This document shows positions 42,126 to 58,867 of a stretch of 64,000 bases of DNA, piece by piece. The notes beneath the pieces are model-generated. The model did no database searches. It was not told the DNA's origin and saw only the letters and a list, made by a program, of their open reading frames with translations. This stretch comes from Granulicella sp. Its GTDB lineage: Bacteria > Acidobacteriota > Terriglobia > Terriglobales > Acidobacteriaceae. The position numbers and the translations under genes were made by a program. The stretch lies in assembly GCA_027339965.1 (NCBI GenBank), contig DAHWNL010000015.1, forward strand, positions 45,000-108,999, read 5' to 3'. The first letter of the stretch is position 1; every line of letters starts with the position of its first letter.

Positions 42126-43223
42126 TTACCGGTTCCGCGGTCTGTCCGCATCCCGGGTCTTTACCAGATTGTCGAAGTCCAGGGATATCTGCACCAACTC
42201 CCCAGGCCTTTGCGCCTTCGGCTGCTCGCGCTGAAGCCAGGCGGGCAGGTCCACGCGCCACAACCGGGCCACGGCGCTGCCGACCCACATCGACCCCCGT
42301 AGTACATGCTTGGCCTTGAAGGGGCCTGCCAGGCGCATCTCGCTGATCCAGTGGGCAGCCGCGCTGGCCGAGCAGCCGCATTGGGTGCAGTCGGGATCGC
42401 CGCCAAAGACGCAGGGCTCAATGCGCGTGGAAAGATCGGCGGAGTAGTTTTTGGAGAGACGCGAAAAAGTGCATTGCCGCGGGGAGGCAGGCGGGTGCCG
42501 CAGGGCCTGCGCGAAGCCTTCCCCGGTGAGCAGTTTGGGATAAAGTGTGCGGAGGCGAGGCAGTTCACTGGTGACCCGCCGGCGCTGCTCGGCGGTCAAC
42601 CGCTCCTGGCTATGCTCATCGCGCTGGGGCGAGTAAAGGCTGACCCAGATGTGGCTCACCTCCGGACGCTCGCTCCAGAAGCGTACGTACTCCTCCAGAT
42701 AGCCGTCGCGCGTCAGCATCTGCGCGGTGATGGTCCAGTGAACGTTGATGCGGCGGCCGGCGATGTTCTCCAAAATGCGCTCGTAGGTTGCCGGATGCCG
42801 GCGCACGTCATGATGCTCCGGCAACCCATCGATCGAGACTGCCGCAGTGAAGTTGGGAAGGCTCATCCACTCCACGGGAATCGGGATGATGCCGCTGGTG
42901 ACCACCATGGCGTGCATGCCCCGAGCGGTAATCCAGGGCAAGATGCGGCTGAGCTCACGGTGGCGCAGCATGGGTTCGCCGCCCACCAGTGTCACGTGCA
43001 GCGGCCTGTGGCGACGGACCAGACCGAGCACGCCGCTGACCAGTGCGTCGCCGCGCTTGTCGCTCAGATCACGCAGCGTCAGCCCACCGCCCAGATGTTC
43101 CTGGCCGTACGCGTAACAGCCAGGGCAGCGCAGTGGGCACTCGCGGGTGATCTCGATGGACAGCATGGGGGTGCTGCCCGCAAGCACTCTCCCCCATGAC
43201 TTCAAAACATCCGAGGTGCGCAA
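42126..43223 (-). CDS. Radical SAM protein with C-terminal Cys cluster (twitch/SPASM-like)
   Basis: 'CPLRCPGC', 'GGEP', C-terminal 'CTF...PCVFGGDPDCTQCGC'. Confidence 0.88.
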   Translation of the reverse strand: MRTSDVLKSWGRVLAGSTPMLSIEITRECPLRCPGCYAYGQEHLGGGLTLRDLSDKRGDALVSGVLGLVRRHRPLHVTLVGGEPMLRHRELSRILPWITARGMHAMVVTSGIIPIPVEWMSLPNFTAAVSIDGLPEHHDVRRHPATYERILENIAGRRINVHWTITAQMLTRDGYLEEYVRFWSERPEVSHIWVSLYSPQRDEHSQERLTAEQRRRVTSELPRLRTLYPKLLTGEGFAQALRHPPASPRQCTFSRLSKNYSADLSTRIEPCVFGGDPDCTQCGCSASAAAHWISEMRLAGPFKAKHVLRGSMWVGSAVARLWRVDLPAWLQREQPKAQRPGELVQISLDFDNLVKTRDADRPRNR

Positions 43224-43459: not shown

Positions 43460-44872
43460 TCAGCACTTGTGCTCATCCCCGTTTTCGTCCGGGCATCCCA
43501 TCGCACTCGGTGAAGAGTTGGGTGCGGGCGGCAGCGAGGAAAAGCTCATGTAGATGCCCTGCCTGGGCCGCAGGATCACCATCGCCCGCTCCGCAACGTC
43601 TTGTCCAGGCTCTAGATAAAGATCGTAATGGCGCAGGAGAACGCTAAGAATCATCAACATCTGGAAAATGGCATAGTTGGCCCCGATGCAGCTCCGCGGT
43701 CCCCCTCCAAAAGGCAGATGCGTAAACGGCGTCTGCTGCTTGATCTGCTCCCTGGCGAAGCGCTCCGGATTGAACTTTTCGGGACTCGGCCAGTACCGTT
43801 CTGCTCGATGGGCGCCATACACATAGACGATGACCATCGAACCGCGCGGAATCACGATATCTCCAACTCGATCCTCGGCCATCGCCATGCGGTCAATCAT
43901 CCAGAAGGGAGGATAGAGACGCAGTCCCTCCTGGATGACCTGGATGGTGTACTCCAGCCGGGCGATCTCCGCGTAACCCAGAGGCGCCGCACCCAGCACG
44001 GAGTCCAGCTCCCGCCTCACGCGCCGCAGGCAATCCGGGTGCGTGCTCAATAGATACAAAAGCCAGGAGAGGCTATTGGACGATGTTTCATGGCCGGCCA
44101 CCAGAAGCTGCATGCTCTCGCTCAGCAACATCTGGTCACTCATGCCCTGCCCATCGCTGTAGCGGGCATCCATCAGCGTCTGCAGAAGGTCGTGCCCGGG
44201 CGGCTGGCCCCGCCGCTGGCGAATGTACTCCAATAGAACGCCGTCGGCGCGCTCTCGCATCTGCTCGTGTTTGCGCAACTGGCCGGAGACCGAAAACCAG
44301 GGGTTCAGATATGGCTCGATCGTCTGGCGAACGATGAACTCCTGAATGGTGGAAATGGAGTGGCTGACCAGGCCAATGTCCTCACTCTTCAGACGAGCGC
44401 CAAAGAGCGAGCGCGCCACCATCGCAAAGGTCATCTTCATCAGGTGAGGGTGGATGTCCACCGGACCAAGACGAACCTGGCGGTCAAACTCCGGCAGAGA
44501 CTCCTGCAACGACTCCTGCATGATGCTCCCCAGCGCCTCCAACTGCTTGCGATCGAATCCCTTCTGGATCAACCGCCGCTGCGTCCGCCAAGCCTCTCCG
44601 TGGGTGGTCAGCAGACCTTTGCCCAGAAAGTGGCCCATTCGCCTGACCTGGATGTGCGACTTCTGATAGTTCTCTGCGTTGGTCTTTAGAACATGCTGCA
44701 TCACCGCAGGTTCGCGCGTCAGCAGAGCTTTCTTCATGCCCCCTAGATAGAACCAGAAGGTGTCGCCATAATGCTCCGTGTACTTTGAGAGAACGTCGAT
44801 GGGATTGCGCGCCATCGCGCGCGAGTCCAGAAGGGAGCGAAGCCGCGAGGCCCCCGGGGCGGAGGAGGGCAA
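43460..44872 (-). CDS. Cytochrome P450
   Basis: I-helix 'AGHETS', 'EGLR', 'FNPERF', heme ligand 'PFGGGPRSCIG'; AAGGAGG RBS. Confidence 0.95.
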   Translation of the reverse strand: MPSSAPGASRLRSLLDSRAMARNPIDVLSKYTEHYGDTFWFYLGGMKKALLTREPAVMQHVLKTNAENYQKSHIQVRRMGHFLGKGLLTTHGEAWRTQRRLIQKGFDRKQLEALGSIMQESLQESLPEFDRQVRLGPVDIHPHLMKMTFAMVARSLFGARLKSEDIGLVSHSISTIQEFIVRQTIEPYLNPWFSVSGQLRKHEQMRERADGVLLEYIRQRRGQPPGHDLLQTLMDARYSDGQGMSDQMLLSESMQLLVAGHETSSNSLSWLLYLLSTHPDCLRRVRRELDSVLGAAPLGYAEIARLEYTIQVIQEGLRLYPPFWMIDRMAMAEDRVGDIVIPRGSMVIVYVYGAHRAERYWPSPEKFNPERFAREQIKQQTPFTHLPFGGGPRSCIGANYAIFQMLMILSVLLRHYDLYLEPGQDVAERAMVILRPRQGIYMSFSSLPPAPNSSPSAMGCPDENGDEHKC

Positions 44873-45008
44873 ACTACACCTCCTTCAAGGGCGATTGTTT
44901 GAGAGAACCGAACCATAACCGGCCAGTGTCACAACTGAATTGGGGCGCCATAGGGAAAGATCCAGACTCCGCGAATGTCGGTTCGCGCCTTTCTTTGTTC
45001 TTCTGTCT

Positions 45009-46145
45009 TCAGTCTGCCTGGCCGAGTTGTCTCAAGAGCATCAGATGGTGACGGATGGCCCCGGCCATGGTGCGATTCTGCCGGTAGGGTATGCCAAACT
45101 CGGCGGCTGTCTGCGCGACGATGCGGGTGAGAGGAGCATAGTGGGTGTGGCAGACGTAGGAGCACAGATGGTGCGCCACATGGTGGTTCAGCCCACCCGT
45201 AAGCCAGCCCACAACCGGGTTCGACGTTGCATAGTCGGCGGTGGTGGCAAAGATGTGATAGACGCCGTTCTCAAACTCATCGCGGCTGGCGGGAAAGTGT
45301 GTGCTTGCCACCGTATGGGTGGTCTGAAAAACTAGCGCCACGCTCAGCCCGACGATCAGATGCACCAGCAGGAATGCCCCGGCCACCAACCACACTGACC
45401 GGCCCAGCACCACCACAGGCAAGATCAGCATGTAAGTGACGTAGAGCGCCTTGCCCATCAATAGGGTGGCGTACTCCCGCGCCGGATGCCGGGCTCGCCG
45501 AAGGTACTCGTGGCTAGGAAAGAAAAAGCACTCGAAGTCGCGCACAAAAACGTAATCCAGAGAGAAGACCGCGTAAAGACCCAGCGCGTAGATATGTTGA
45601 AATCGCTGCGCCCGGGTGCGCGGCTCATGCGGAGTAAAACGCAACAGTCCTCTTCCCGTCAGTGCATCGTCCTCCCCGTGGATGTTGATGCAGGAGTGAT
45701 GCCCGCGGTGGTGCAGAATGCGCCACATGTAAGAACTGATGCCGCAGAGATCAAAGACATAATTCAGTGTCTTGTTGACCCAGGGGCGGGACGAGATGGC
45801 GTTATGGTTGCTGTCGTGAGCGATATTCAGCAGCAGGAAGGTCTGGGCAAGCCCGCCTAAAACGTAGAGAGCCACAAAGGCTCCCGGTCCCATCCTGACG
45901 GCATAAATCGCGATCCAACTGCCTGCGAGCAACGCCATTCCAGCGACAATCTTGACCCACATGGTCCGGTTAGCCTTGGGAGAGATGCCCTGACTGGTAA
46001 AGTACTGTTCCAGACGCTGCCGCAAGACTTTGGGGAAAAGGGCGCGGCCCGCTGCATCGACCGGAGAGTCGCCGGCTATCGCTCGCGCCGGGTCACGGTC
46101 AACAGCTTCATCGCCGGTGCGCTCGCGAATCACCAGGTCCTCCAT
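45009..46145 (-). CDS. Membrane-bound fatty acid desaturase (start uncertain)
   Basis: His boxes 'HDSNH', 'HHRGHH', 'HHVAHH'; TM helices. Confidence 0.9.
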   Translation of the reverse strand: MEDLVIRERTGDEAVDRDPARAIAGDSPVDAAGRALFPKVLRQRLEQYFTSQGISPKANRTMWVKIVAGMALLAGSWIAIYAVRMGPGAFVALYVLGGLAQTFLLLNIAHDSNHNAISSRPWVNKTLNYVFDLCGISSYMWRILHHRGHHSCINIHGEDDALTGRGLLRFTPHEPRTRAQRFQHIYALGLYAVFSLDYVFVRDFECFFFPSHEYLRRARHPAREYATLLMGKALYVTYMLILPVVVLGRSVWLVAGAFLLVHLIVGLSVALVFQTTHTVASTHFPASRDEFENGVYHIFATTADYATSNPVVGWLTGGLNHHVAHHLCSYVCHTHYAPLTRIVAQTAAEFGIPYRQNRTMAGAIRHHLMLLRQLGQAD

Positions 46146-46416
46146 CTCCTCCGCGGTTATGGGTACTGTCTGCACGCAGGACGTCACAGTCCCCTCGCAA
46201 CCCCAACTTGCTCCAAATTCCATCCGGCCTCCCCGCAAGATCGGCGAACAGGGTGCGGACAGGGCAGATTATAACCCCGCAGTCCAAGTTTGCGACGGTA
46301 GCGCAGCGCCCGCGCTCCAAGCAAGACCGGAGTCGCAAGCCTCGGTAGATCCTCACCCGGCGGAGAGATGGCCGTGAGCAGACAAGGCAGGCATGACGGA
46401 GCGTTCATCTTGAGCT

Positions 46417-46506
46417 GGAAATCCTGAACTGGAAATCTTTGGACGGGCAATCCTGGCCCCGCAATCCTGGCCCCGCAATCCTGGACCCGCAGTCCTGGAC
46501 CCGCAA
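46417..46506. repeat. 14-bp tandem repeat (GCAATCCTGGMCCC): 4 good copies plus 2 degenerate
   Basis: Read directly in the divergent intergenic region. Confidence 0.85.
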
Positions 46507-47127
46507 ACATGATGGGCAATTGCGCTCTGCTATCCTTGGCCAATGGCTCGTGCTGTCACCATGAAATGGCTCATTTCCTTGCCACTCCGCTGCTGTGCCG
46601 CGTCGGCTCGCCCAGCTCTCGCGCTCTCTTGTCGCGACGGCTGCGGGCTCTGGCCATGGAAATCACGCGCGTGCAATATACTGGAGACTTCAGCGCTCAA
46701 CCGTTGATCTTTAAGACCCAATTCCGAGCCCGAAAAGAAGCAGGACCTGCCCCAAAGGTGGAGCGGAGATCGAGAGTTCAGGTATCTTTTTCCATCAAAG
46801 AAGGGCATGCCCCCGCGCCGCGCTTGAACAGATACGGTCGGTAAGTTGCTTCGCGGGCACAGCCACAGACAAACAGAATGGGCTGGCAGAGAGAAGGTCA
46901 CTGAGTGGTTGCGCGAGAGTTCCCACTCCAGCCTTACCCTGACAAGAGGCACCGATCATTGAGAATCCGGAGTTTGGCCGCCCGGATTCATTCTGCAACA
47001 TGGGCTGTTGTACGGCTGGGCAGAGGCTAGGACTCTGGCTCTTTCCATGCCCAGGGAGATGTCTTGGACACCAGCGCCAGATGCTGATCGCTATCAACCC
47101 AACACGGGAGGTCGTCACGGACCGATT

Positions 47128-50100
47128 ATGACGTCGATTTTGGACACGCTGGACCGACTGGGAGCCGAGCACCCGCACAAACGTCTCTACTCTTACCTTG
47201 ACCCGCACGGAAAGACGCTGGAGAGCTACACGTATGCGTCCTTCCTCCGCCGCACCAGGGCCATTGCGGAGCACCTGCTGAAGGACGGCCGCTTTGCCCC
47301 GGAGCAACGGCTGCTGCTGGCCTACCCGCCGGGGCTGGAGATGATCTGCGCCTTCTTCGGCTGCGTACGCGCCGGACTGGTTCCGGTGCCGGTGTACCCA
47401 CCCAGCTCGCGCGGCTTCCAGAGCGCCCTTTACAAGATGGTCCACATCGCCAAGGACTGCCAGGCCGCCGGAGTGCTGACCAACGAAGAGTACTACGCAT
47501 CGCTCAAGACCAACCTGGCCAGAAGCGGCGTCTGCGCCTCGGGAGTGGACGTCGATTTCATCTCCGGCCTGGCCTGGATCCCAACCGAAGGGTTTGTCGA
47601 ACCGATCCGCGCAGAGTTCTCCGCCGCGGCTTCGCGGACCCTTTTTCTGCAATATACCTCGGGCTCGACCATGGACCCCAAAGGAGTGGTGGTCTCCCAC
47701 GAGAACATCCTCCATACCAGTCCGCTGGTCATCGATCATCCGGATCCCGTGGTGGTCTCTTGGCTGCCGCAGTATCACGATATGGGCTTGATCGGCTGTT
47801 ACCTGTATCCGGCGCTGCAAGGCGGCACGGTCTACGGCTTCTCGGCTACCGACTTCATCCAGCGCCCCATCCTCTGGTTTGAGACCATTACTCGCTATCG
47901 CGCCACAGCATCGGCCGCACCCAACTTCGCCTACGACTACTGTCTGCGCGCCGGCCGTCTCTCCAAAGAAAGCCTTGCAGAGTGCGATCTGAGCTCACTG
48001 AAGATTCTCATGTGCGCTGCCGAGCCGGTGAAGCCGGAGACCTTTACTCGCTTCCTGGAGACCTTTGAGCCTTTCGGATTGAAGGCGACGAGCTTCTACG
48101 CCGCATACGGCCTGGCGGAGAACACGCTGGCTGTCTCCCTGGACGGCCGCTCCATCCTCTCGGTACAAAAGCACGCGCTGGCGCTGGGCAAGGCGCGGAT
48201 GACCACCGAGGTCTCCGAGATCGAAGCCTCGGTCCAGGTGGTCAGTTGTGGAACTCCGCTGCCCGGCATCCAGGTGAGGGTCGTCGACCCGGAGCGCCAC
48301 GTTGCGCTGGAGCCAGGACAGATTGGCGAGATCTGGATTGCGGGCCAGGGCAAGTGCCAGGGCTACTGGAACAACCCCGAGCTCACGTTGAAGCAGTTTC
48401 ACGCGCGACTGGTGGACGACAGCCCCTTTGACGATGGGTATCTGCGCACCGGCGATATGGGCTTCTTCCATCGTGGCGAACTCTTCGTCTGCGGCCGGAT
48501 CAAGGACATGATCATTCTGCGCGGCCAGAACTACTACCCGCAGGATATTGAACGCATCGTGGAGCGAACCTCAAGCCTTCTGCGCGCCCATTGCGTCGCT
48601 GCTTTCCAGATCCACGAAGCCAGCGAGCCGGCGCTGGCCATTGTGGCCGAGGTGAAGAACCCCAGTGTGCTTCCCGATGCGCGCAAGATCGCCACCGAGG
48701 TCCGCAACTACCTGAACGTGGAGGTGGCGCTGATCTGCTTCATTGCGCCCCGCGCCATTCCCCGAACCAGCTCGGGCAAGATCATGCGCCACAAGACCAA
48801 GCAGATGTGGCTTGACGGCCAGTTCAAGGTTCTCTCCGAGTTCTCCCGCGAGAAAGACTCCGGCGCCGCTGCGGCGGCCACTACGGCGCGCTCCTCCTTT
48901 GACGCCATGAAAGCGCGTTACAACCTGACCGGCATGGAGCCCTACAACCTGGTGGAAGCCGGACTGGATTCGCTCGACCTGGTGGTCTTCATGCATGAGC
49001 TGAAGGAATTGCTCAAGGACAAAGGTGCTGAGATCCTCGCCCGCCAGATCGATGTTGGCGTGATTCAGCGCGTCAGCGTGGCCGAGATCTTCCTGCTGGC
49101 CGAGCAGTTGGAGAGCGCTCCCGAGGAGGCTTTGCTGCATCTGCGCCAATCCCTAGCCACCTTCCGCGAAGAGCAGCAGGCAGCCGAACGAACCCTCATG
49201 CTCCAGGACAGCAAGCTCGCCTTCTCGCCCCGCACTCCCGCGCCGCTGCCCGAAGTTGTCATCCCGGAACATGTGCTGCTCACCGGCGGCACCGGATTCA
49301 TCGGCCCGTTTTTGATGAGGAGCTTGCTGGAGCAAACCCATGCGCGGATCTGCGTGCTGGTGCGCGCCGCTGACGAAGAGCAGGGCCGGCAACGGCTGCG
49401 CGCGGCCATGGAGTCGATGGGCCCATGTTCCTCGGCGCTGATGCGTAGCTTCGAAAGGCGCGTGACGCCTCTCTGCGGCGACCTGGGTCATCGCAACCTG
49501 GGCCTGAGCGACGAGACGTGGAACCGGTTGGCCAAGGAGGCCGACACCATCTTCCATAACGGCGCCACCGTGAACTACCTGTTCAACTACGACCGTATGC
49601 GCGAAGCCAACGTGATGGGCACGAACGAGGTTCTGCGTCTGGCCTTCGCTGGGCGCCCCAAGGAGTTCAATTACGTCTCCACCACCTTCGTCTTCGGCTG
49701 GGCGGTAAAGAAGGTTCTGCGGGAGACCGATCACAACCAGGATATGGAGTTGCTCGACTTCGGCTACAGCCAAACCAAGTGGGTCGCCGAACAGGTAGTG
49801 GCCGACGCCCGCAGCAAGGGCCTTTCCACCCGCATCTTCCGCCCCGCGCTGGTCAGCCCTTCGGTCTCCGGCGGCGGCAACAACTTCGATATTGCGGTGC
49901 GCCTGGTCGCCTTCATGATCAATCACGGAATCGGCGTCGATGCTCTCAACCAGGTGAGCTTTGTTCCGGCGGACATTGTGGCCGACAATATCGTGGCCAT
50001 CGCCACCACACCCGGCACGGCGAACCAGACCTACCACGTCACCCGCGACGATTACTCCAACATGCTCGACATCACCGGCCTGATCACCCGATCCACCGGA

Positions 50101-50400
50101 CGGCAGTTCGAGATCTTCAGCCTGCGCGATTTTGTGCCGGAGCTGATCCGGCGCTGCCGCAAGGAGGATCTGCTCTTCCCGTTGCTAGACTTCCTGGTGG
50201 GCTCGGTGGAGAACATCTCCGCGATGGAGTTCAAGCGTTACGACAGCTCGGCTTATCAGGCTGCCCGCGACGCCTCTGTCTGCGGAAGGCCGGATCCATC
50301 CCTGGAAGAGACGGTGAATGGCATTCTGAAGTTCATGCACCGCAAGGGCATCATCTCGGTGGCTCCGCACGAGGTGAACGAGCCCATCGAAGTGGCGTAG
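47128..50400 (+). CDS. Fatty acyl-AMP ligase - carrier protein - thioester reductase (FAAL-T-R) multidomain enzyme
   Basis: FAAL: 'FLQYTSGST..PKGV', 'SWLPQYHDMGLIG', 'PNFAYD', 'YGLAE', 'RTGDMG', 'PRTSSGK'; carrier 'GLDSL'; R domain 'LLTGGTGFIG', 'HNGATVN', 'YVST', 'GYSQTK', 'RP'. Confidence 0.9.
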   Translation: MTSILDTLDRLGAEHPHKRLYSYLDPHGKTLESYTYASFLRRTRAIAEHLLKDGRFAPEQRLLLAYPPGLEMICAFFGCVRAGLVPVPVYPPSSRGFQSALYKMVHIAKDCQAAGVLTNEEYYASLKTNLARSGVCASGVDVDFISGLAWIPTEGFVEPIRAEFSAAASRTLFLQYTSGSTMDPKGVVVSHENILHTSPLVIDHPDPVVVSWLPQYHDMGLIGCYLYPALQGGTVYGFSATDFIQRPILWFETITRYRATASAAPNFAYDYCLRAGRLSKESLAECDLSSLKILMCAAEPVKPETFTRFLETFEPFGLKATSFYAAYGLAENTLAVSLDGRSILSVQKHALALGKARMTTEVSEIEASVQVVSCGTPLPGIQVRVVDPERHVALEPGQIGEIWIAGQGKCQGYWNNPELTLKQFHARLVDDSPFDDGYLRTGDMGFFHRGELFVCGRIKDMIILRGQNYYPQDIERIVERTSSLLRAHCVAAFQIHEASEPALAIVAEVKNPSVLPDARKIATEVRNYLNVEVALICFIAPRAIPRTSSGKIMRHKTKQMWLDGQFKVLSEFSREKDSGAAAAATTARSSFDAMKARYNLTGMEPYNLVEAGLDSLDLVVFMHELKELLKDKGAEILARQIDVGVIQRVSVAEIFLLAEQLESAPEEALLHLRQSLATFREEQQAAERTLMLQDSKLAFSPRTPAPLPEVVIPEHVLLTGGTGFIGPFLMRSLLEQTHARICVLVRAADEEQGRQRLRAAMESMGPCSSALMRSFERRVTPLCGDLGHRNLGLSDETWNRLAKEADTIFHNGATVNYLFNYDRMREANVMGTNEVLRLAFAGRPKEFNYVSTTFVFGWAVKKVLRETDHNQDMELLDFGYSQTKWVAEQVVADARSKGLSTRIFRPALVSPSVSGGGNNFDIAVRLVAFMINHGIGVDALNQVSFVPADIVADNIVAIATTPGTANQTYHVTRDDYSNMLDITGLITRSTGRQFEIFSLRDFVPELIRRCRKEDLLFPLLDFLVGSVENISAMEFKRYDSSAYQAARDASVCGRPDPSLEETVNGILKFMHRKGIISVAPHEVNEPIEVA

Positions 50401-50502
50401 GAGCGCCAGGAACGCTCTTGGAAGCGAGGCAGCCACGCCAGGCCGCCGCCAACGCCTTGCGTCTTCACCAGCCGCGGCACCCGCCGGCGAAGACGCGCTG
50501 GC

Positions 50503-50612
50503 TAAAGCAGTTTCAGTGCAGGTGTACCCAATGCCTCGACTTCTATGGGCGTTTTCCCCAATGAAAACGCCACTGTAAGCCCTCTTCGGGACACCCATCA
50601 ACACTGAAAATG
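50503..50612. repeat. Dispersed ~110-bp structured repeat, copy 2
   Basis: Matches 32209-32319; inner hairpin GGCGTTTTC-cccaat-GAAAACGCC. Confidence 0.85.
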
Positions 50613-50707
50613 CCATAAAGCAGCGCTTGACTCGCGGGGTTTTTCATCGGCGTTCGGGCCGGATCCGGCACAGCGGCTCTCGCCTCGTGATCAAGGGGGG
50701 CCGTAAT

Positions 50708-51511
50708 TTACTGCTTGCGGAAGACCAACGTCTCTGCGAGGTGCTGTCCGGTCGGCAAGGTTCCTTCGTCGGTCATCGTCATCCGGCGTCCATCAGCGGA
50801 GACAATATAGCGGGCTTTCTCCGTCGCCTGGCCGTCGCGGCGATAGATCTCGTCCACGGTGCGAGCATTCACCAGCGAAAGCTGCACCGTGTCATTGCGC
50901 GAGTTCTGCAGATCATACTGCCGGCCATCCAGGCGCGCGTCATAGCGAAAGCCCGAGGAGAATTGAACCCCGCCACGGCCATCCGATTCAATCTTCAACA
51001 CCATCCCCTGCCGCATCAGAGTCCGGCTCATCTGCTCGGTCCACTCACCGGCGAAGGGATCCCGGAGCCGCCGCGCGCCCGCGCTTCGCTTCCAGACTGT
51101 AACTCCGTCGTTCTGGCCGCCGAGGTTCGCGTCCCCGTCTCCCTGGCTCCTGGTGGCGATCGTAAGCTCTTTGCCATCCTTCGATAACTGATCGTCCAGC
51201 GTCGCGACCACCAAGCCGTCCTTCTTCTCCGTCACCACGACGTGTCTCCGGTTGATCCGGTGCAACTCGATTTGATCAAAGAGCGGATTGCCCGCCACTG
51301 CGGTCTGCTTTCCGCTGGCGCTGGCGGTAAACGCCACGTGTTTCTCTCCGGAGATCACGACTCGCTCACTGTCTCCCCGGCGTGTGATCGACAACCGGTT
51401 GGGCGGAGTCAGCTTGCACTGAGCCGATTCGAGCGTCCAATTGCCGATGCGCGGATCTGCGGATCCGATCTGGACCGCGGCAAAAAGTCCAAGGATAACG
51501 AAGCGTAAAAT
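50708..51511 (-). CDS. Secreted protein with two internal beta-rich (lipocalin-like) repeats; start uncertain (ATT at 51511 or GTG at 51631)
   Basis: Repeats 'GNW..DQIELHRIN..SKDGKELT' and 'GEW..DTVQLSLVN..SADGRRMT'. Confidence 0.65.
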   Translation of the reverse strand: MLRFVILGLFAAVQIGSADPRIGNWTLESAQCKLTPPNRLSITRRGDSERVVISGEKHVAFTASASGKQTAVAGNPLFDQIELHRINRRHVVVTEKKDGLVVATLDDQLSKDGKELTIATRSQGDGDANLGGQNDGVTVWKRSAGARRLRDPFAGEWTEQMSRTLMRQGMVLKIESDGRGGVQFSSGFRYDARLDGRQYDLQNSRNDTVQLSLVNARTVDEIYRRDGQATEKARYIVSADGRRMTMTDEGTLPTGQHLAETLVFRKQ

Positions 51512-51732
51512 AAGGGGCTCCTTCGCCGTTGCCGGCTGCGACCACTCTAGCAGAGACGCAAACGGATGGGGGAGAGGATAAAATCCACCCAGTAGGATCC
51601 AGTGGGGTCGCGTAACAACCGCGGCGTCCACCGGTGTTCATTGCTGGCGTCGTCCACACCCATCCCTGCTCGCACGGGAGATGGAGGACCGGAACCGGAA
51701 GACGCCCTCGATCGCGTAGGGACGAAGTGGAT

Positions 51733-53979
51733 ATGAATCGCTTGAAAGTGCACCATTTCTGGGTCTCGGGGATCGTTCTTGCCGTTGTCCTCGCCCTGCT
51801 TCCCTCTTCTTTCCACGCTGGAAACCACCTGGAAACGGCCACTCGCGTTGAAGGCAGCCCGGCCGAGACGGTCGATCATGAACTAGCCAGCGACTTCCAT
51901 TCGCCCTTCGTCAACCGCGTGGTCCTTGTCATCCAGGGTCTTCCACCGGTTAATTCTCCGACCGGCGAGCAGGCATTGCGAACCGTCGTCTCTGCCGTCG
52001 AGGAGCAGCCGGGCGTCTCCGCCGTGATCTCCTATCTCCAGTTGCGCGACCCCCTCTTTTTGGGCCACGGCGGGGGCAGCTTCGTCCTGATTGGGCTGGA
52101 CTCAAACTCAGGCCCGGTAGAGCTGCTGATCCCCGCTCTGCATCAGTGTGCCCACCAACTGGAGGCGCAACTGCGCAGTACCTACCCCAAGGTCAAGCTG
52201 CAATTGACCGGCGAGGTTCCGCTCAACTTTGACCTGCGCCGGGTCAGCGCCGAAGATGTGCGCCACGGAGAGAGCCTGGTGATCCCCGCCACGCTGGCTC
52301 TGCTGCTTCTCGCCTTCGGCAGTCTGGCGGCCGCGCTGATTCCCATCGCCGTCGGCCAGCTCGCCATCGCCACCACCATGGCGATTGCGGGCCTGCTGGG
52401 CCAGCACTTCCATCTCTCCATCCTGATCCAGAATCTGGCCACCATGCTGGGCATGGGCCTGGGCATCGATTACACGCTGCTCATGGTCAGCCGGCTTCGC
52501 GAGGCGATTGCCGCCGGCCACGGCAAGGCTGACGCCGCGCGAATCGCCGCGCGCCGCGCCGGGCGCACCCTGCTGATCTCCGCCTCCACCGTCGCCATCG
52601 GCTTCCTGGCCCTGTTGACCGTACCCATCAGCGAGATTCGCTCGATCGGCCTGGCCGGATTTCTGGTGGCCGGCGTCAGCGTTCTGCTGGCCAACACCGT
52701 CGTCCCTTCTCTTTTGGCGCTGCTAGGCCCCCACATCAATGCCGGACGCCTGCCCTTCACCCCCAGGCTCGACCTGCGTCGCCCTGAGTGCGTCGGGGGC
52801 CGCTGGCGAAGCTGGGGCCGGCGAATCGTCGCTCACCCCTTTCTGGCCATCCTGCTCTCCGGCACGCCGCTGCTGCTGCTGGCTTATCAGGCCACGCGCA
52901 TGGATACCAGCTTGCCCCGGGGTGACTGGCTGCCGGCACAGGCTGAATCCGTTCAAGCGCTGGATGCGCTGCATCGTATGGGCCGCTCCGGAGTTGTGGA
53001 GTCCCTGCGCCTGATCGTCGATTTGCCCTCGGATTCAATCATCGGCTCTACCGCCGGCTGGGACGCCATCAATCGCCTCTCCAGCCGCGTGGCCGCTGAC
53101 CCGCGTTGCGCCCGCGTACTCTCTATCACCACCCTCACCAGCGGGGACCGTTCTTACGTGGACGAACTCTCCCGCCAGACCCAGCGGTCCCTGGTGAGCC
53201 GCAATGGCCACCAAGCCTTCGTCGAGGTTCTGCCCAAAGACTCCGTCTCTTTACGGGGGCAAGTGGATTGGATACGGCAGATACGCGCAACGGGCGCTCC
53301 TGAGCTTACGGGCGTGCCCAATGCCACGCTTTTGGCCGGCGGCATCCCTGCCCTGAACGCCGACTATCAAACCATCGTCCAACGTCAGATGATCCCCGTG
53401 ACCACCATGGTGGTGGTGGCGACGCTGATCGCCCTGCTCTGCGGGTTCCGATCTGTCGTCGTCGCGATCAAGGCGATCCTGCTCAACCTACTCACCGTAG
53501 CCGCCTCTTTCGGAGCTTTGGTGCTGGTCTTCCAGCGCGGCTACGGCTGCCGGTGGCTGGGCGTGAGCGCCGGGACCGGCAGCGTCTTTCCGCTGGTCCC
53601 CATTGTGACCTTCGCCATCGTCTTCGGTCTGAGCATGGACTATGAGGTCTTTCTGGTCGCCCGTGTCCTGGAGGCGCGCCGCAGTGGCTTCAGCGAGTTG
53701 GAGGCCATCCCCGAAGGCATGGCCCAAACCGCCGGATTGATTACCAGCGCCGCAGCCATCATGATTGCGGTCTTCATCGCCTTCACCCTGGGCAACTTTC
53801 TAGTGGTCAAAATGATCGGTTTCACCCTGACGGTAGCCGTCTTCCTGGATGCCACCCTGGTTCGCATCGTGATTGGCCCGGCTCTGCTGCGCGTCGCCGG
53901 CGACTGGAACTGGTGGCCGTGGGGGCTCAGCCGGCGTGCGAAAGAGCCAATGAAGTCCGCGACGCCGGCATCTTCGTAA
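51733..53979 (+). CDS. MMPL (RND superfamily) lipid transporter
   Basis: 'GLGIDYTLLMVSRLRE' and 'FGLSMDYEVFLVARV'; 'DATLVRIVIGPALL...NWWP'. Confidence 0.92.
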   Translation: MNRLKVHHFWVSGIVLAVVLALLPSSFHAGNHLETATRVEGSPAETVDHELASDFHSPFVNRVVLVIQGLPPVNSPTGEQALRTVVSAVEEQPGVSAVISYLQLRDPLFLGHGGGSFVLIGLDSNSGPVELLIPALHQCAHQLEAQLRSTYPKVKLQLTGEVPLNFDLRRVSAEDVRHGESLVIPATLALLLLAFGSLAAALIPIAVGQLAIATTMAIAGLLGQHFHLSILIQNLATMLGMGLGIDYTLLMVSRLREAIAAGHGKADAARIAARRAGRTLLISASTVAIGFLALLTVPISEIRSIGLAGFLVAGVSVLLANTVVPSLLALLGPHINAGRLPFTPRLDLRRPECVGGRWRSWGRRIVAHPFLAILLSGTPLLLLAYQATRMDTSLPRGDWLPAQAESVQALDALHRMGRSGVVESLRLIVDLPSDSIIGSTAGWDAINRLSSRVAADPRCARVLSITTLTSGDRSYVDELSRQTQRSLVSRNGHQAFVEVLPKDSVSLRGQVDWIRQIRATGAPELTGVPNATLLAGGIPALNADYQTIVQRQMIPVTTMVVVATLIALLCGFRSVVVAIKAILLNLLTVAASFGALVLVFQRGYGCRWLGVSAGTGSVFPLVPIVTFAIVFGLSMDYEVFLVARVLEARRSGFSELEAIPEGMAQTAGLITSAAAIMIAVFIAFTLGNFLVVKMIGFTLTVAVFLDATLVRIVIGPALLRVAGDWNWWPWGLSRRAKEPMKSATPASS

Positions 53980-54107: not shown

Positions 54108-57100
54108 TTATTGCACCGTGAGCGTGACCGTCTGGCTTTGCTGCAAAGATCCGCTGCTTGCCGTTACCGTCAGCATGTACTTTTGTGTGTTTTGAGACTG
54201 GGTGCTGGAGATTGCACTGGCCTGCTGCCCTCCACAGCCTGAGAGCATGCCTCCCAACCCGGAGCCCAGCAGAAGAAGAAGCAGGGTGCGGCTGAGCTTT
54301 TCCTGCATCGACCTCCACAGCGGCTTGCGCTTTCGTCTTCCTCCCACCAGAGGCAGAAGCAGAAGCGCCAGCAGCGTCTTGCCTTCCGGCGTTCCTCTCA
54401 TCTCCAAGGGAATCCCGCTGCGCGCGCTGTTTGCAGCCGTCTGCACCGTCAGCGCCACCGCGGTTGCCCCGCTGTCAGCGGCTACCGAAACTGGCGTAAG
54501 GCTGGCCGTGGCTCCCGATGGCAGACCCGCCACCGCGAACGTGACCGGACCCGGAAAGCTGCCGTAAAGAGGTGCGACGTTGAAGCTGTAGGTGACCGAG
54601 CCGCCTGAAGAGGTTGTGGAGGCGCTTGGCCCGACGTTTGTAAAAGTGAAGCCGAGAGCCGCCACAGCGACGCTGACACTGCCGGCCGTGGAGCTGCCCA
54701 GAAAGTTTCCATCGCCGGCGTACCGCGCAGTGACCTCATTGCTGGAACCTGCACTGAGGGACGCTGCATACTCAGCCACACCGGCGGTCACCGGCTCGCT
54801 GGCCAGCGCTGTCCCGTTGTCGTAGAAGGTGACTGTACCAGTTGGCGTCACCGGAGTGGCGGCAATCGTGGCCACCACCGTGGCCCGGAGCGTAACCGTC
54901 TGCCCGGGCGTGGCGGAAGTAGCGCTCGCGCTGATCGTTATCGCGGATGGCTGCTGGGCCACAGCCAGGGTAAAGTTTGCGGTGGCCGCCGCACCGTTGG
55001 CATCGGTGACCGTCACTGTGTAGTTCGCCGCTGCGCCGGCCTGAGTTGGCGTGCCCGCGACGGCTCCCGTAACGGCGCTGAACGCCAGACCCGCCGGCAG
55101 CGCCGGAGAGACGCTGTAACTCAACGGCGCTGCACCTCCGTTACCCGCTACCGGCTGAAAGCCCGCCGTGGCCTGGTAAAACGTCAGCGTCGTGGAGGCT
55201 GCGGTGGTCTTCGCCGTCACTGCACTGACCACCGTCAGGCTGAAGGCCGCTGTGGCCGCCGCCCCATCGGCATCGGTGACCGTCACGGTATAGCTGGCCT
55301 CCGCACTTGCCTGGATTGGCGTGCCCGTGATCGTTCCTGTGCCGGCGCTGAACGACAAACCCGAAGGCAGCGCCGGGGAGACGCTGTAGCTCAGCGGCGC
55401 AACTCCACCACTGGCTGTCACCGGCGTAAAGGGAGCAGCGGCATGATTCTGAGTCAGTCTTATGGAGGCGACCGTCTGGCTTGCAACCAGAGTCGAGATC
55501 ACTTCCGTCAAGCTGCCGCCGCTGCCGGAGTGGGTGGCATCGCCAGAGTAGACCGCAGAGATGGGATGCTTCCCCGGCGCCGCAAAGCTCGCCTGCACGG
55601 TCGCGGTGGCAGTGCCGCCGGTGGTCTCCAGGCTCGCCGCGCCCAGCAACACCGCCACGCCTGAGATCGCGTCATAAAAGGAGACCTCGCCCGTCGGCGT
55701 GGAGCTGCCCGCAACTGCGCTTTGGACCGTCGCAGTGAACGTCACCTCCTGATTCGGCTGCTGCGGATTGGCCGCCGCCGTCAGCGTGGTGACGGTCGGC
55801 GCAGGCGCCAGCACATAGGTGAATCCAGTCAGATTGCCGATCTCCGGCGAGTTGCCGCTGCCATGCCCGGAGCTGTCCGCTACACCTTCGTCCCCGTAGG
55901 CCGCGTAGAGATACAGAGTATGCACGCCTACAATCTGCCCAGACAGCGGAATGCTGAACTCCGCAGTGGCTCCGGAGACGCTCATCCACGTTGCCTCACT
56001 CCATTCCCCGCCAACTCCATCCACCTGGTAGTACAGCGCCGTAGGAACTGGATTGGCTGGAGAAGGGGACTGCGCATCATCGACATAGGCGCTCAATGCA
56101 GTGTACTGGCTGGTCACCGTCGCGGTGAGCACAGGCGCGGTGTTCTCGGTAAGAAACGGCGTTCCAAGGCTAAGGTTCGGCAGAGCGATCGTGAGCGGAT
56201 CCGCGGACATTGGCGGCGCGGTGACGCTGACTGCGAGTGGCACGCTTGGCCCCGCACCCGCCCCATACGGGTTGATCTCGGAGACGCTGCTGCCGCCGGA
56301 GTTGGCCACGTAGACATCATGGGTCACCGGGTTCAGGACCAGCGCGGCAGGATCGCTGCCCACATCCACCGCCGTGACGCGGCTCGATGCGCCGTCAATC
56401 ACCGAGACCGTACCGCTATCGCTGTTAACGACATCGATCTGGTTCGTCACCGGATCAACCGTTAAGGCGGTAGGATCGCTGCCCACATTCACCGTGGCCA
56501 CCAACGAGTTCGTCGCCTCGGCAATCACGGAGACCGTGCCGTCGCCGGAGTTGGCTACATAGAGCTGTTGCGTTCTGGAGTCCACTCCCAGCGCCACCGG
56601 ATTGTCGCCCACGCTCACCGTCGCGGTCACGGAGTTGGTGGCTTCGCTGATCACCGAAACCGTGCCGCTAGCCTTGTTGGCCACATAGATCCGGTGGGAA
56701 GCTACATCGACGCAGATGGCCGCCGGATCCCCTCCCACGCTCAGCGTCGCGGTCACAGAGTTGGTGGCTCCGCTGATCACCGACACCGTCCCGCTGCCGG
56801 CATTGGCGACGTAGACCTGGTTGGTCAACGGATCCGTGGCGACAGCTACGGGATCGGAGCCGACGCTCATTGTCGTCTCTGCGCCGCCGGCACCATCGAT
56901 TACGGAGACGGTACCGTCGGCGCTGTTGACCACGTAGACCCGATTGGTCACCGGGTCCACCGCCAGCCCGGTTGGGTCGTTGCCCACACTTAGCGTCGCA
57001 ATCACGCCGTTTGCCGCTCCGCCGATCACGGAGATCGAATGGCTCCCGCTGTTGGCAACGTAAATCTGGTTCGTCACCGGGTTCACTGCCAGCGCATCCG

Positions 57101-58388
57101 GACTGCTGCCAACGCTGACCGTGGCAGCCACAACGCCGCCGGCACCGTTGATCACCGAGACCGTATCACCGGCGCTGTTGGCAATGTAGATCCGGTTGGT
57201 CACTGAATCCTCCACGGCCGCAGACGGGGCGCTCCCCACCGCCACTGTGGCCACCATATTCACCTCTCCGGCGATCACGGAGACCGTGCCACTGGACAGA
57301 TTGGCGGCAAAGACCTGGTTGGTGACGGGATCGACGGCCAACGTAGAGGGTTCTACCCCCACCGTCAGCGAAGTAACAGCGTTGGTGGCTCCATCGATCG
57401 CCGCGACCGTATTGCCATCCTGGTTGGCGACATAGATCTGGTTGGTCACCGAGTTCAACGCCAGCGCCACCGGATAGCTTCCAACACTGCCCACCGTGAT
57501 CGGCGTCACGGCGTTGCTTGCCCCGTCGATCACTGAGACCACGGCTGATCCTGCATCGGCGACGTAGACCTGATTCGTCACCGGATTCACCGTCAGCGCA
57601 TCAGGCGCGCTGCCCACCGTCACCTGGGTCACAGCGTTGCTGGCCCCATCGATCACAGACACCGTGGCGGCTCCCTCATCGGCGACATAGATCTGGTTCG
57701 TAACGGGATTCACCGCCAGCGCCACCGGATCGCTACCCACAGCAACCTGGGTCACCGCGTTGCTGGCCCCATCGATTACAGACACCGCGTTGCTCCCCGG
57801 GTCGGCCACGTAGATCCGGTCGGTCACCGGGTTCACCGCCAACGCATAGGGGTTGACCCCGACAGGCACTGAGGTCACCGAATCGGAGGCCCCGTCGATG
57901 ACGGACACTGTATTGCTGCTGTAGTTGGCAACGTAAATTTGGTTGGTGACAGGATTGACCACCAGCGCAAAGGGCTCTGCTCCCACGCTGATCGTGGCGG
58001 CCACCACGTTCGTGGCCCCGTCGATGACGGAGACCATGCTGCCTGCGCTCCCGCTGCTGTTGTTGGCCACATAGATCTGATCCGTTACAGGGTTCACCGC
58101 CAACGCAACCGGCTGACTGCCCACCATGACCGTCGCCGTGACCGTATCCGTCGTGCCATCGATGACTGAAACCGTATTGCTGGCCGTATTGGCGACGTAG
58201 ATCCGGCTGGTAACAGGGTCCACCGCCAGCGCAAAGGGTGAGGCTCCCACCGTCACGGTGGAGGAAACGGCTTGCGCGGCCAAAGGCACGGCCAGAAGCG
58301 TAACCAGAAACGTAACCAGAAGCATGACCAGAGAGGTTGCCCGAGCTTTGCAAAAAGGAACCGGCAGAATCCTGGAGACCACAGCCAT
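54108..58388 (-). CDS. Large surface protein: 16 YVTN-type repeats, several Ig-like domains and a C-terminal TM-TM-LSGC segment (start uncertain)
   Basis: Repeat 'VGSxPxALAVNPVTNQIYVAN..TVSVIDG'; Ig motifs 'PTGEVSFYD..YSGD', 'LPSGLSFS..GTITGTP'. Confidence 0.88.
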   Translation of the reverse strand: MAVVSRILPVPFCKARATSLVMLLVTFLVTLLAVPLAAQAVSSTVTVGASPFALAVDPVTSRIYVANTASNTVSVIDGTTDTVTATVMVGSQPVALAVNPVTDQIYVANNSSGSAGSMVSVIDGATNVVAATISVGAEPFALVVNPVTNQIYVANYSSNTVSVIDGASDSVTSVPVGVNPYALAVNPVTDRIYVADPGSNAVSVIDGASNAVTQVAVGSDPVALAVNPVTNQIYVADEGAATVSVIDGASNAVTQVTVGSAPDALTVNPVTNQVYVADAGSAVVSVIDGASNAVTPITVGSVGSYPVALALNSVTNQIYVANQDGNTVAAIDGATNAVTSLTVGVEPSTLAVDPVTNQVFAANLSSGTVSVIAGEVNMVATVAVGSAPSAAVEDSVTNRIYIANSAGDTVSVINGAGGVVAATVSVGSSPDALAVNPVTNQIYVANSGSHSISVIGGAANGVIATLSVGNDPTGLAVDPVTNRVYVVNSADGTVSVIDGAGGAETTMSVGSDPVAVATDPLTNQVYVANAGSGTVSVISGATNSVTATLSVGGDPAAICVDVASHRIYVANKASGTVSVISEATNSVTATVSVGDNPVALGVDSRTQQLYVANSGDGTVSVIAEATNSLVATVNVGSDPTALTVDPVTNQIDVVNSDSGTVSVIDGASSRVTAVDVGSDPAALVLNPVTHDVYVANSGGSSVSEINPYGAGAGPSVPLAVSVTAPPMSADPLTIALPNLSLGTPFLTENTAPVLTATVTSQYTALSAYVDDAQSPSPANPVPTALYYQVDGVGGEWSEATWMSVSGATAEFSIPLSGQIVGVHTLYLYAAYGDEGVADSSGHGSGNSPEIGNLTGFTYVLAPAPTVTTLTAAANPQQPNQEVTFTATVQSAVAGSSTPTGEVSFYDAISGVAVLLGAASLETTGGTATATVQASFAAPGKHPISAVYSGDATHSGSGGSLTEVISTLVASQTVASIRLTQNHAAAPFTPVTASGGVAPLSYSVSPALPSGLSFSAGTGTITGTPIQASAEASYTVTVTDADGAAATAAFSLTVVSAVTAKTTAASTTLTFYQATAGFQPVAGNGGAAPLSYSVSPALPAGLAFSAVTGAVAGTPTQAGAAANYTVTVTDANGAAATANFTLAVAQQPSAITISASATSATPGQTVTLRATVVATIAATPVTPTGTVTFYDNGTALASEPVTAGVAEYAASLSAGSSNEVTARYAGDGNFLGSSTAGSVSVAVAALGFTFTNVGPSASTTSSGGSVTYSFNVAPLYGSFPGPVTFAVAGLPSGATASLTPVSVAADSGATAVALTVQTAANSARSGIPLEMRGTPEGKTLLALLLLPLVGGRRKRKPLWRSMQEKLSRTLLLLLLGSGLGGMLSGCGGQQASAISSTQSQNTQKYMLTVTASSGSLQQSQTVTLTVQ

Positions 58389-58867
58389 CTCGCCTGGCGC
58401 TCTTGCAACTCGCGCCAAGCGGAGTGCAGCCTGGAACCGGGTTCTTGCAATGTCTCGCCAAAGCCGCGCACCGTCTCGCTGATGCGGCACACCGGAAGAT
58501 CGATTCGCTGCAACCGACGCCATCCCCGCTCAGCCCTCTGGTTACAAACTGCTTATCGGCTCGTGTCGGGGCGCACATGAGGATAAGTTAGGACGATTTG
58601 TATTTTATTTTTACTTTCGTAACAGCAATGCCGCACAAGGGAGCCAAATTTTGCTCCTTGCGCTGTGCGGACAGCATGATATTGAGTAAAAACTTAGGAA
58701 TAACCTCTCCGCAGTTTCACGGCATGGGAGCAAGGTCAGCGATGAGCTGGCCTGCCGGGTTTTCGGGGATACAGACGGCAGCTCCCGTAGAATCAAAAGC
58801 ATCGGCAAAGCCTAGGGGAACGATTGCAGTCATCGCTTCATCCCGCCCGCTGCCTGGGAGCTTCTAC

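Follow-up and report, generated by a model that had tools for sequence, protein, structure and literature searches.

Polyyne clusters are characterised by several desaturases together with a thioesterase, or by a hand-off to a polyketide synthase (PKS) or to a nonribosomal peptide synthetase (NRPS), and the ElbD protein carries an acyltransferase domain together with a reductase, an acyl carrier protein (ACP) and a ligase. In the heterocyst glycolipid route of cyanobacteria, the ACP-reductase HglB and the exporter DevBCA act on PKS-built, glycosylated chains. The five genes analysed here lie at positions 43460..53979 of a 64,000-nucleotide stretch of Granulicella sp. (Acidobacteriaceae; assembly GCA_027339965.1, contig DAHWNL010000015.1, positions 45,000 to 108,999 of the forward strand), hereafter the window. 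In this order they encode a cytochrome P450 and a membrane fatty-acid desaturase (both minus strand), a synthase composed of a fatty acyl-AMP ligase (FAAL), a carrier and a reductase domain (plus strand), a double-barrel protein resembling fatty-acid-binding proteins (FABPs; minus strand) and a transporter of the MMPL/resistance-nodulation-division (RND) type (plus strand), and all five open reading frames (ORFs) were confirmed. They form one conserved cassette, apparently an undescribed set for lipid biosynthesis and export in which known enzyme classes surround an uncharacterised family of FAAL-carrier-reductases.

With the JamABC and caryoynencin sets the cassette has a FAAL, a carrier and a membrane desaturase in common, whereas the reductase fused to the end of the synthase, the P450, the MMPL transporter and the FABP-like protein set it apart, as do its one desaturase of acyl-CoA type and the lack of a PKS/NRPS hand-off or thioesterase; neither a thioesterase nor a ketosynthase (KS) was found in the cassette or among its recurrent neighbours. 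As in the Myxococcus ElbD/elb system, ligase, carrier and reductase would yield a reduced fatty chain with no KS involved, but synthase and cassette have no acyltransferase match in Pfam, the neighbouring genes are others and the domain order differs from that of ElbD. The reductive release of a long-chain alcohol followed by export to the envelope, as proposed for the cassette, has its parallel in the heterocyst glycolipid route, although here a preformed fatty acid would be loaded by the FAAL and the product exported by the MMPL transporter. Carboxylic acid reductases (CARs) are not known to occur in P450-desaturase-MMPL cassettes. They share with the synthase the adenylation-thiolation-reductase (A-T-R) order, activation by ATP, a carrier thioester and release by NAD(P)H (PMC10510592), while the synthase differs by its FAAL-type A domain and by an R domain nearer to MxaA; despite the common A-T-R order, the CAR equivalog model NF041592 scores only 142.6 on the synthase (cut-off 1300).

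The sequence-only reading of this DNA had not recognised the combination as a described pathway, and targeted full-text literature searches, outside whose coverage MIBiG and most subscription journals lay, likewise found no description of the gene set. In the accessible text of a 2025 FAAL review, the words reductase, aldehyde and P450 never occur and no acidobacterial product is listed (PMC11837247), and the available part of another source mentions FAAL fusions with domains resembling alpha-aminoadipate reductase in passing, their architectures unexplained (PMC8460268). A survey of biosynthetic gene clusters in 618 genomes of Acidobacteriota reports, in the portion consulted, that only seven clusters group with MIBiG references, such as myxochromide and occidiofungin (PMC13712943); its supplements may list the present cluster as an anonymous NRPS-like family. 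An NRPS-like region is also mentioned, without detail in the text available, elsewhere (PMC12935467).

Conservation and distribution of the cassette

A scan that covered a single genome from each species returned at least 674 related stretches, of which the best 80 loci (74-95% identity) were kept; the locus counts given here refer to these. By our count from their listing, all five genes occur in the same order and orientation at 68 of the 80. Gene by gene, the desaturase is present at 76 loci, the barrel and MMPL genes at 75 each and the P450 at 73, order and orientation being constant. Eleven of the 12 incomplete loci stop at a contig edge on the side of the missing gene, and at four contig-edge loci that gene was recovered on another contig; for locus L074, the MMPL gene was not found. 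At locus L006, which can serve as a deletion control made by nature, the desaturase is cleanly absent, with the P450 lying directly upstream of the synthase, and no desaturase match was found elsewhere in that genome. The grouping of the five genes goes far beyond chance, their synteny at 68 loci standing against flanking window genes that are common to only one of the 80. The sequence-only reading would have fallen had the genes been syntenic in no other genome; the synteny at 68 of 80 loci, and the adjacency of synthase and desaturase in 20 of 401 genomes sampled from the class, decisively show the contrary.

Record titles at the 80 loci are nearly all of Acidobacteriota (Granulicella, Edaphobacter, Tunturiibacter, Terracidiphilus, Terriglobus, Bryobacteraceae). 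The synthase occurs at 74% identity or more in 20 of the 401 genomes of the unbiased class sample, and the desaturase at 70% identity or more in exactly those 20, adjoining the synthase. Eighteen of these carriers belong to the window's family (83 sampled, the window's genome included) and two to one other family; in a phylum sample of 401 genomes, eight full-length barrel matches were found, all in the window's family. Among class genomes, then, the cassette is an accessory trait, patchily distributed and either wholly present or wholly absent. Pairwise distances among the five genes are correlated (rho 0.71-0.88, 57 loci), which shows co-inheritance only, as kin are not independent.

Two cassettes at 75-78% identity stand under other titles, L068 (Janthinobacterium lividum) and L054 (Dormiibacterota). 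L068 was considered as a case of spread beyond Acidobacteriota and rejected, for its genome groups with the window's class and the title is probably wrong. Locus L096 (G313:C1:3360000-3379999) holds the whole cassette with intact P450 and desaturase genes and frameshifts in the synthase, barrel and MMPL genes; these stem from the decay of one half of the cassette or from errors in long reads.

The FAAL-carrier-reductase synthase

The synthase (1090 amino acids) occupies ORF 47008-50400 on the plus strand, and its likely start is ATG 47128, assigned like the other likely starts below from Shine-Dalgarno context and relatives; the alternative among relatives is a TTG slightly upstream. Pfam detects AMP-binding (E 1e-63) and NAD_binding_4 (E 1e-59) in the one protein. 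The best matches in the PDB to the FAAL domain (47128..48846) are themselves FAALs, headed by 7R7E (E 4e-107), the loading domain of an olefin synthase, followed by 3KXW, FadD23/32, 3PBK and the E. coli FAAL in a range extending to 1e-48. Acyl-CoA ligases match more weakly (about E 1e-17 to 1e-22), and the amino-acid A-domain model TIGR01733 scores 139, below its cut-off of 317, so that by sequence comparison the ligase domain is closest to FAALs and not to CoA ligases or amino-acid A domains. Its A3 motif is kept in 80 of 80 sequences and A10 in 76 of 80. In a comparison aimed at the FAAL-specific insertion and the proline-lined alternative pocket, the segment following YGLAE aligns without gaps to 7R7E, with LAYPPG and PVPVYPP conserved, as judged by eye and in a part of the model that is of low confidence.

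The middle domain (48895..49116) is a putative, divergent carrier with a conserved serine. PF00550 (PP-binding) matches weakly in all 23 aligned members (best E 0.002, all below the cut-off), and a comparison with ACPs in the PDB gave no significant match; the DSLDxV motif resembles that of fatty-acid-synthase ACPs, a PDB match that is itself non-significant. G-x-D-S is invariant, also in a Ralstonia relative of 37% identity, and the predicted phosphopantetheine site is Ser615 (codon 48970-48972) within GLDSLD. In the AlphaFold model of the full-length synthase (mean predicted local distance difference test, pLDDT, 52), four carrier helices are seen at low confidence, the second of them beginning with Ser615.

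The R domain (49270..50400) passes NCBIfam TIGR01746 (244.7, cut-off 213.35) and is nearest to the R domain of MxaA (E 7.5e-53), a reductase that yields an alcohol, and then to CAR (E 3.7e-28). Its NAD(P)H motif TGxxGxxG (here TGGTGFIG), threonine (Thr852/853) and YxxxK (Tyr880, Lys884) are kept in 79, 79 and 78 of 80 sequences, and these features, the glycine motif plus a Thr-Tyr-Lys triad, are given as the definition of thioester reductases in the consulted part of PMC10510592.

The genome (98.9% complete) holds one phosphopantetheinyl transferase (PPTase), whose length and sequence mark it as AcpS-type, and the N-domain family of Sfp-type enzymes has no match in it, so that the carrier would be primed by AcpS; seven of the 19 other carrier genomes also hold a single PPTase match. 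Sfp, with which the sequence-only reading had wanted the synthase expressed, is therefore not the native primer. Elsewhere in this genome (L175 3973-7331, G000:C81), a second reductase with NAD_binding_4 is followed by a separate AMP-ligase gene; the two are candidates for a split fatty-acyl reductase or for an ElbD-like pair.

P450 and desaturase

The P450 (43460..44872, minus strand) belongs to PF00067 (E 1.4e-82) and keeps the motifs AGHET and ExxR in 74 of 74 sequences and the haem-binding cysteine in 72 of 74. P450s beside distant synthases are 37-43% identical to it, as against 27-33% for the genome's own paralogues and 33% for the best plasmid-encoded match. Two segments, YxKSxIQ and PPFWx(I/V)DR, are common to the cassette P450 and the P450s beside distant synthases while being absent from the paralogues, and may be substrate-contact regions. 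As the P450 tree comprises only 14 sequences (L148 placed with support 0.66), no exclusive clade is claimed. Four genes with 2Fe-2S ferredoxin domains lie elsewhere in the genome.

The desaturase (45009..46187, minus strand; ORF open to 46238, likely GTG start at 46187) matches PF00487 (FA_desaturase, E 6e-28) and has no sequence relative in the PDB. Front-end and DesA3-type desaturases possess three His boxes of which the third is QxxHH. In the cassette enzyme the boxes HDSNH, HHRGHH and HxxHH are found in 74 of 74 sequences, whereas a Bacteroidota relative of 38% identity has QxxHH as third box, and the cassette desaturase is therefore placed in a distinct subfamily. The nearest desaturase clusters are labelled acyl-CoA or "linoleoyl-CoA" desaturase.

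MMPL transporter and double-barrel protein

The transporter gene (51733..53979, plus strand; ORF 51634-53979, likely ATG start at 51733) encodes a member of PF03176 (E 5e-63) whose best PDB match is MmpL3 (E 3e-55). Its Asp-Tyr proton-relay pairs are kept as GIDY in 68 of 68 and MDYE in 66 of 68 sequences. The equivalog cut-offs are missed for MmpL3 (NF052608, 238 vs 1400), HpnN (73 vs 752) and BstA (26 vs 1400). As in MmpL3/Bst lipid trafficking, an MmpL3-like RND protein with Asp-Tyr pairs stands beside a periplasmic, here predicted, lipid-binding partner; in the cassette, however, that partner is a tandem FABP-fold protein without Pfam family.

That partner is the barrel protein (50708..51511, minus strand; ORF 50708-51631). 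Its AlphaFold model (pLDDT 84) comprises 20 strands in two tandem ten-stranded barrels, an internal repeat is detected at E 3e-5, and the fold matches secretory-abundant heat-soluble (SAHS) and fatty-acid-binding proteins (Z 11-13, root-mean-square deviation about 3 A over about 120 residues). The model thus has a calycin/FABP fold, from which lipid binding is predicted, although sharing a fold is no proof of it. The duplicated secreted barrel described from sequence alone is recovered here as two FABP-like repeats, with the signal peptide recognised by eye.

Comparison with its relatives suggests that the barrel gene uses a conserved AUU start. The best-spaced start behind a Shine-Dalgarno sequence is ATT in 55 of 75 loci, in the window at 51509-51511 (minus strand) behind AAGGAG; ATG stands at the same position in seven of the 75, and in 26 no in-frame ATG, GTG or TTG precedes the signal peptide. 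As a control, the same scoring applied to the other four genes yielded three ATT picks, and for most MMPL genes it found no start. Owing to this apparent AUU start, databases carry truncated (216 amino acids) or over-extended forms of the protein. AUU starts are rare and sensitive to initiation factor 3 (IF3), infC and pcnB being the E. coli cases named in the accessible text of PMC5499595.

Gene layout and flanking genes

The cassette consists of two head-to-head pairs, P450-desaturase/synthase and barrel/MMPL, with synthase and barrel convergent. The sequence-only reading was right about the five genes and about the P450 and desaturase being divergent from the synthase, but had let the barrel gene follow the synthase. 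A plus-strand reading of the barrel is ruled out by stop codons; with that gene on the minus strand, synthase, barrel and MMPL do not make one operon. More than 1 kb is inserted between synthase and barrel in 14 of 75 loci, while the head-to-head spacers stay short. The barrel/MMPL spacer (51512..51732) is short in all 75 loci measured, and in its consensus conserved extended -10-like motifs are visible by eye. The desaturase/synthase spacer (46188..47127) has motifs conserved across relatives and is longer in this genome than in most of them; it contains two short 14-nucleotide tandem repeats at 46407-46506 (2.2 and 4.3 copies), one of them at 46447-46506. A promoter and terminator scan gave hits at chance level only, in this spacer too, and an Rfam search of the spacer returned no family. 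A Pfam scan of the 19 window proteins matched no KS, condensation or PPTase family, in agreement with what had been noted from the sequence alone.

Neighbouring genes were considered as further members and rejected. The radical S-adenosylmethionine (SAM) gene, ftsQAZ, the YncE-repeat protein and the glycosyltransferases are common to only one of the 80 loci. A haloacid-dehalogenase-like (HAD) hydrolase (17 loci), an HpnB-like family 2 glycosyltransferase (GT2; 7) and a type III PKS (4) recur in subsets only and on varying sides, and are therefore taken as local context. The survey of neighbours at these loci found no regulator, acyl-CoA or beta-oxidation gene recurrent near the cassette. Outside it, the radical SAM gene lies at 42126-43223, with no family above cut-off, and 54108-58523 encodes a 1471-residue YVTN beta-propeller/immunoglobulin-like (Ig) protein with an "invert_tail" anchor domain.

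Related synthases in other bacteria

Among the 150 best clusters at 50% identity, some 50 are full-length FAAL-carrier-reductases, and named members of the family come from Ralstonia, Duganella, Rugamonas, Mucilaginibacter and non-tuberculous mycobacteria. With a mycobacterial query, 74 distant metagenomic loci were collected, and neighbours were clustered for 65 of them after nine partial FAAL-only matches had been dropped. No orthologue of the cassette's desaturase, barrel or MMPL gene was found at the 74 loci, and a related P450 stands beside five. A cluster with a diacylglycerol (DAG) kinase domain is present at as many as 27 of the 35 Mycobacterium-like loci (a single-linkage count with one member scanned). 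The 30 other distant loci show PAP2 enzymes (13), P450s (4), Lgt (3), a second desaturase type (2), a CarS-like gene (1, L135) and an MMPL gene in L153, where MMPL, synthase and desaturase are united independently. The substrates of kinases, PAP2 enzymes and cytidylyltransferases carry hydroxyls or lipid phosphates, and this guilt by association favours a fatty alcohol as the product of the family.

The Mycobacterium-like loci (L099-L133) hold a short-chain dehydrogenase/reductase (SDR), the DAG-kinase-domain gene, the synthase, a PF10118 metal hydrolase, an alpha/beta hydrolase and a 2Fe-2S flavin reductase, possibly a second undescribed lipid cluster. On a Ralstonia megaplasmid (CP025986; L082 9899-13264), a full-length synthase of 37% identity adjoins a PAP2 gene, and the other four cassette genes are absent; in 110 plasmid records the match extends over 80% or more of the synthase query, and the full-length matches among those listed are all from Ralstonia. 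Further contexts (L135, L146, L150, L153, L143/L145/L163) have varied lipid-gene neighbours: the CarS-like gene of L135 is accompanied by one resembling phytol/dolichol kinases by eye (no Pfam match), among L146 and L150 there is an AlkB-like desaturase with a DevB/DevC-like exporter (the DevB/DevC-like genes in L150), and among L143, L145 and L163 the lipoprotein-maturation genes Lgt and Lnt occur with PAP2.

A proposed pathway and its alternatives

That the genes travel together and that their catalytic motifs are intact is established, and the chemical and transport steps are drawn from knowledge of the families. We consider it moderately probable that the cassette makes, without recourse to CoA, a long-chain fatty alcohol that is unsaturated and either hydroxylated or epoxidised, and that this product is exported to the envelope or the outside. 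The FAAL would adenylate a free fatty acid and load it onto its own carrier (Ser615, primed by AcpS), bypassing CoA; in the accessible text of the sources, FAALs use holo-ACP and not CoA (PMC8460268), and A-T-R enzymes reduce carboxylates (PMC10510592). With NAD(P)H, the R domain would release an aldehyde and probably reduce it further to the primary alcohol. The desaturase would introduce a double bond and the P450, served by the ferredoxins encoded elsewhere, would add oxygen, each before, on or after the carrier; absence from one carrier genome means that the desaturase may be optional tailoring. The proton-driven MMPL protein would then carry the product over the inner membrane, from where the double FABP in the periplasm would ferry it on to the surface or outer membrane; the amount of this FABP would be tuned by the conserved AUU start. 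The likely role would be that of an accessory envelope or surface lipid or of a secreted oxylipin-like metabolite. The scheme of activation, modification, reduction and export had been put forward from the sequence alone, and it gains from the synteny, the intact motifs, the FABP fold and the neighbours acting on alcohols and lipid phosphates, while the analogy to alkynes and polyynes that came with it is weak.

Several points weigh against this proposal. Aldehyde and alcohol cannot be told apart from sequence, and FAAL chain length is not reliably predictable from it, according to section 4.2 of PMC11837247 as far as available. The carrier domain falls short of the Pfam cut-off, the full-length synthase model is poor, and the only PPTase is AcpS-type, seven other carriers also having a single match. 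The unusual third His box of the desaturase could mean other chemistry, one carrier genome lacks this enzyme, and the P450 tree is small, with weak support for L148 (0.66). Finally, the genes sit in separate, divergent units, and the direction of MMPL transport is an assumption.

The carbonyl carbon of aldehydes is removed by CYP4G in insects and by CER1/CER3 in plants. If, similarly, the synthase went no further than the aldehyde and this carbon were removed by the P450 or by the enzyme of desaturase fold, an alkane or alkene (hydrocarbon or wax) would be exported. The olefin-synthase origin of 7R7E, the closest solved FAAL, and the atypical HxxHH box would suit such an outcome, as would the frequent halting of A-T-R enzymes at the aldehyde described in the available part of PMC10510592. 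We nevertheless consider it unlikely, as the P450 retains the usual acid-alcohol pair and scores far too low for CYP152 (47 bits, cut-off 600), the R domain is nearer to MxaA than to CAR, the neighbours of distant synthases require a hydroxyl group and a hydrocarbon would hardly need an FABP shuttle.

Ranked behind it, and likewise unlikely, is detoxification or scavenging, in which there would be no dedicated product: free fatty acids or fragments of plant wax and cutin, membrane-permeant in acid habitats, would be trapped, undergo oxidation and reduction and be expelled, or else would be bound and taken up. The costs in ATP and NADPH and the very high conservation (74-95% identity), which fits a defined substrate, speak for a dedicated route instead, and neither regulators nor acyl-CoA or beta-oxidation genes recur nearby; moreover, a FAAL with its own carrier diverts acyl groups from CoA and beta-oxidation (PMC8460268, in the part consulted). 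The patchy, all-or-none distribution (20 of 401 class genomes), the pairing of an FABP-type binding protein with an RND-type transporter and the possibly broad chain-length range of FAALs (PMC11837247, section 4.2, as far as accessible) are what such a function would predict.

An acetylenic alcohol, formed by repeated action of the desaturase on the carrier-bound chain up to a triple bond, is improbable. FAAL, carrier and membrane desaturase are indeed the JamABC components (PMC11837247, section 3.2, in the text available), and the third box is again HxxHH; yet the analogy to JamABC and caryoynencin drawn by the sequence-only reading does not hold up well, for there is a single desaturase, dispensable in one genome, with neither thioesterase nor rubredoxin in the cassette, and its nearest relatives are labelled acyl-CoA or linoleoyl-CoA type. 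A supply of alkyl chains for the glycerol ethers of acidobacterial membranes, in an ElbD-like role, is the least probable and very doubtful, since the Pfam scan and neighbour survey found no acyltransferase in the cassette, be it as a domain or as a gene, ElbD has another domain order, only 18 of 83 genomes of the window's family carry the cassette and the elb components include neither P450 nor MMPL nor a periplasmic FABP, even though distant synthases adjoin phospholipid-type enzymes and ElbD, uniting ligase, carrier and reductase, has homologues in Acidobacteriota according to the available part of a preprint (bioRxiv 10.64898/2026.06.23.733905).

Implications

A more far-reaching version of the exported fatty alcohol proposal is offered tentatively, as we think it rather less probable. 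The cassette would be a self-contained cutin- or oxylipin-like pathway built on an unrecognised class of CoA-independent fatty-alcohol synthases ranging from Acidobacteria to Ralstonia and mycobacteria, here yielding a new unsaturated diol or epoxy-alcohol that an MmpL3-like pump in a diderm passes to a tandem-FABP shuttle dosed by a conserved AUU start.

Few metabolites have been verified in Acidobacteriaceae, a family that abounds in acid soils (PMC13712943, in the portion consulted). The strictly conserved five-gene pathway occurs in cultured genera (Granulicella and Tunturiibacter, by record titles) and is directly testable. Its barrel gene would extend the rare conserved AUU start beyond infC and pcnB, and pump and barrel together are a candidate MmpL-plus-FABP lipid route through the Gram-negative periplasm. 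The synthase itself may convert free fatty acid into fatty alcohol within a single protein, which would be of use in biocatalysis and bear on unexplained lipids in several phyla.

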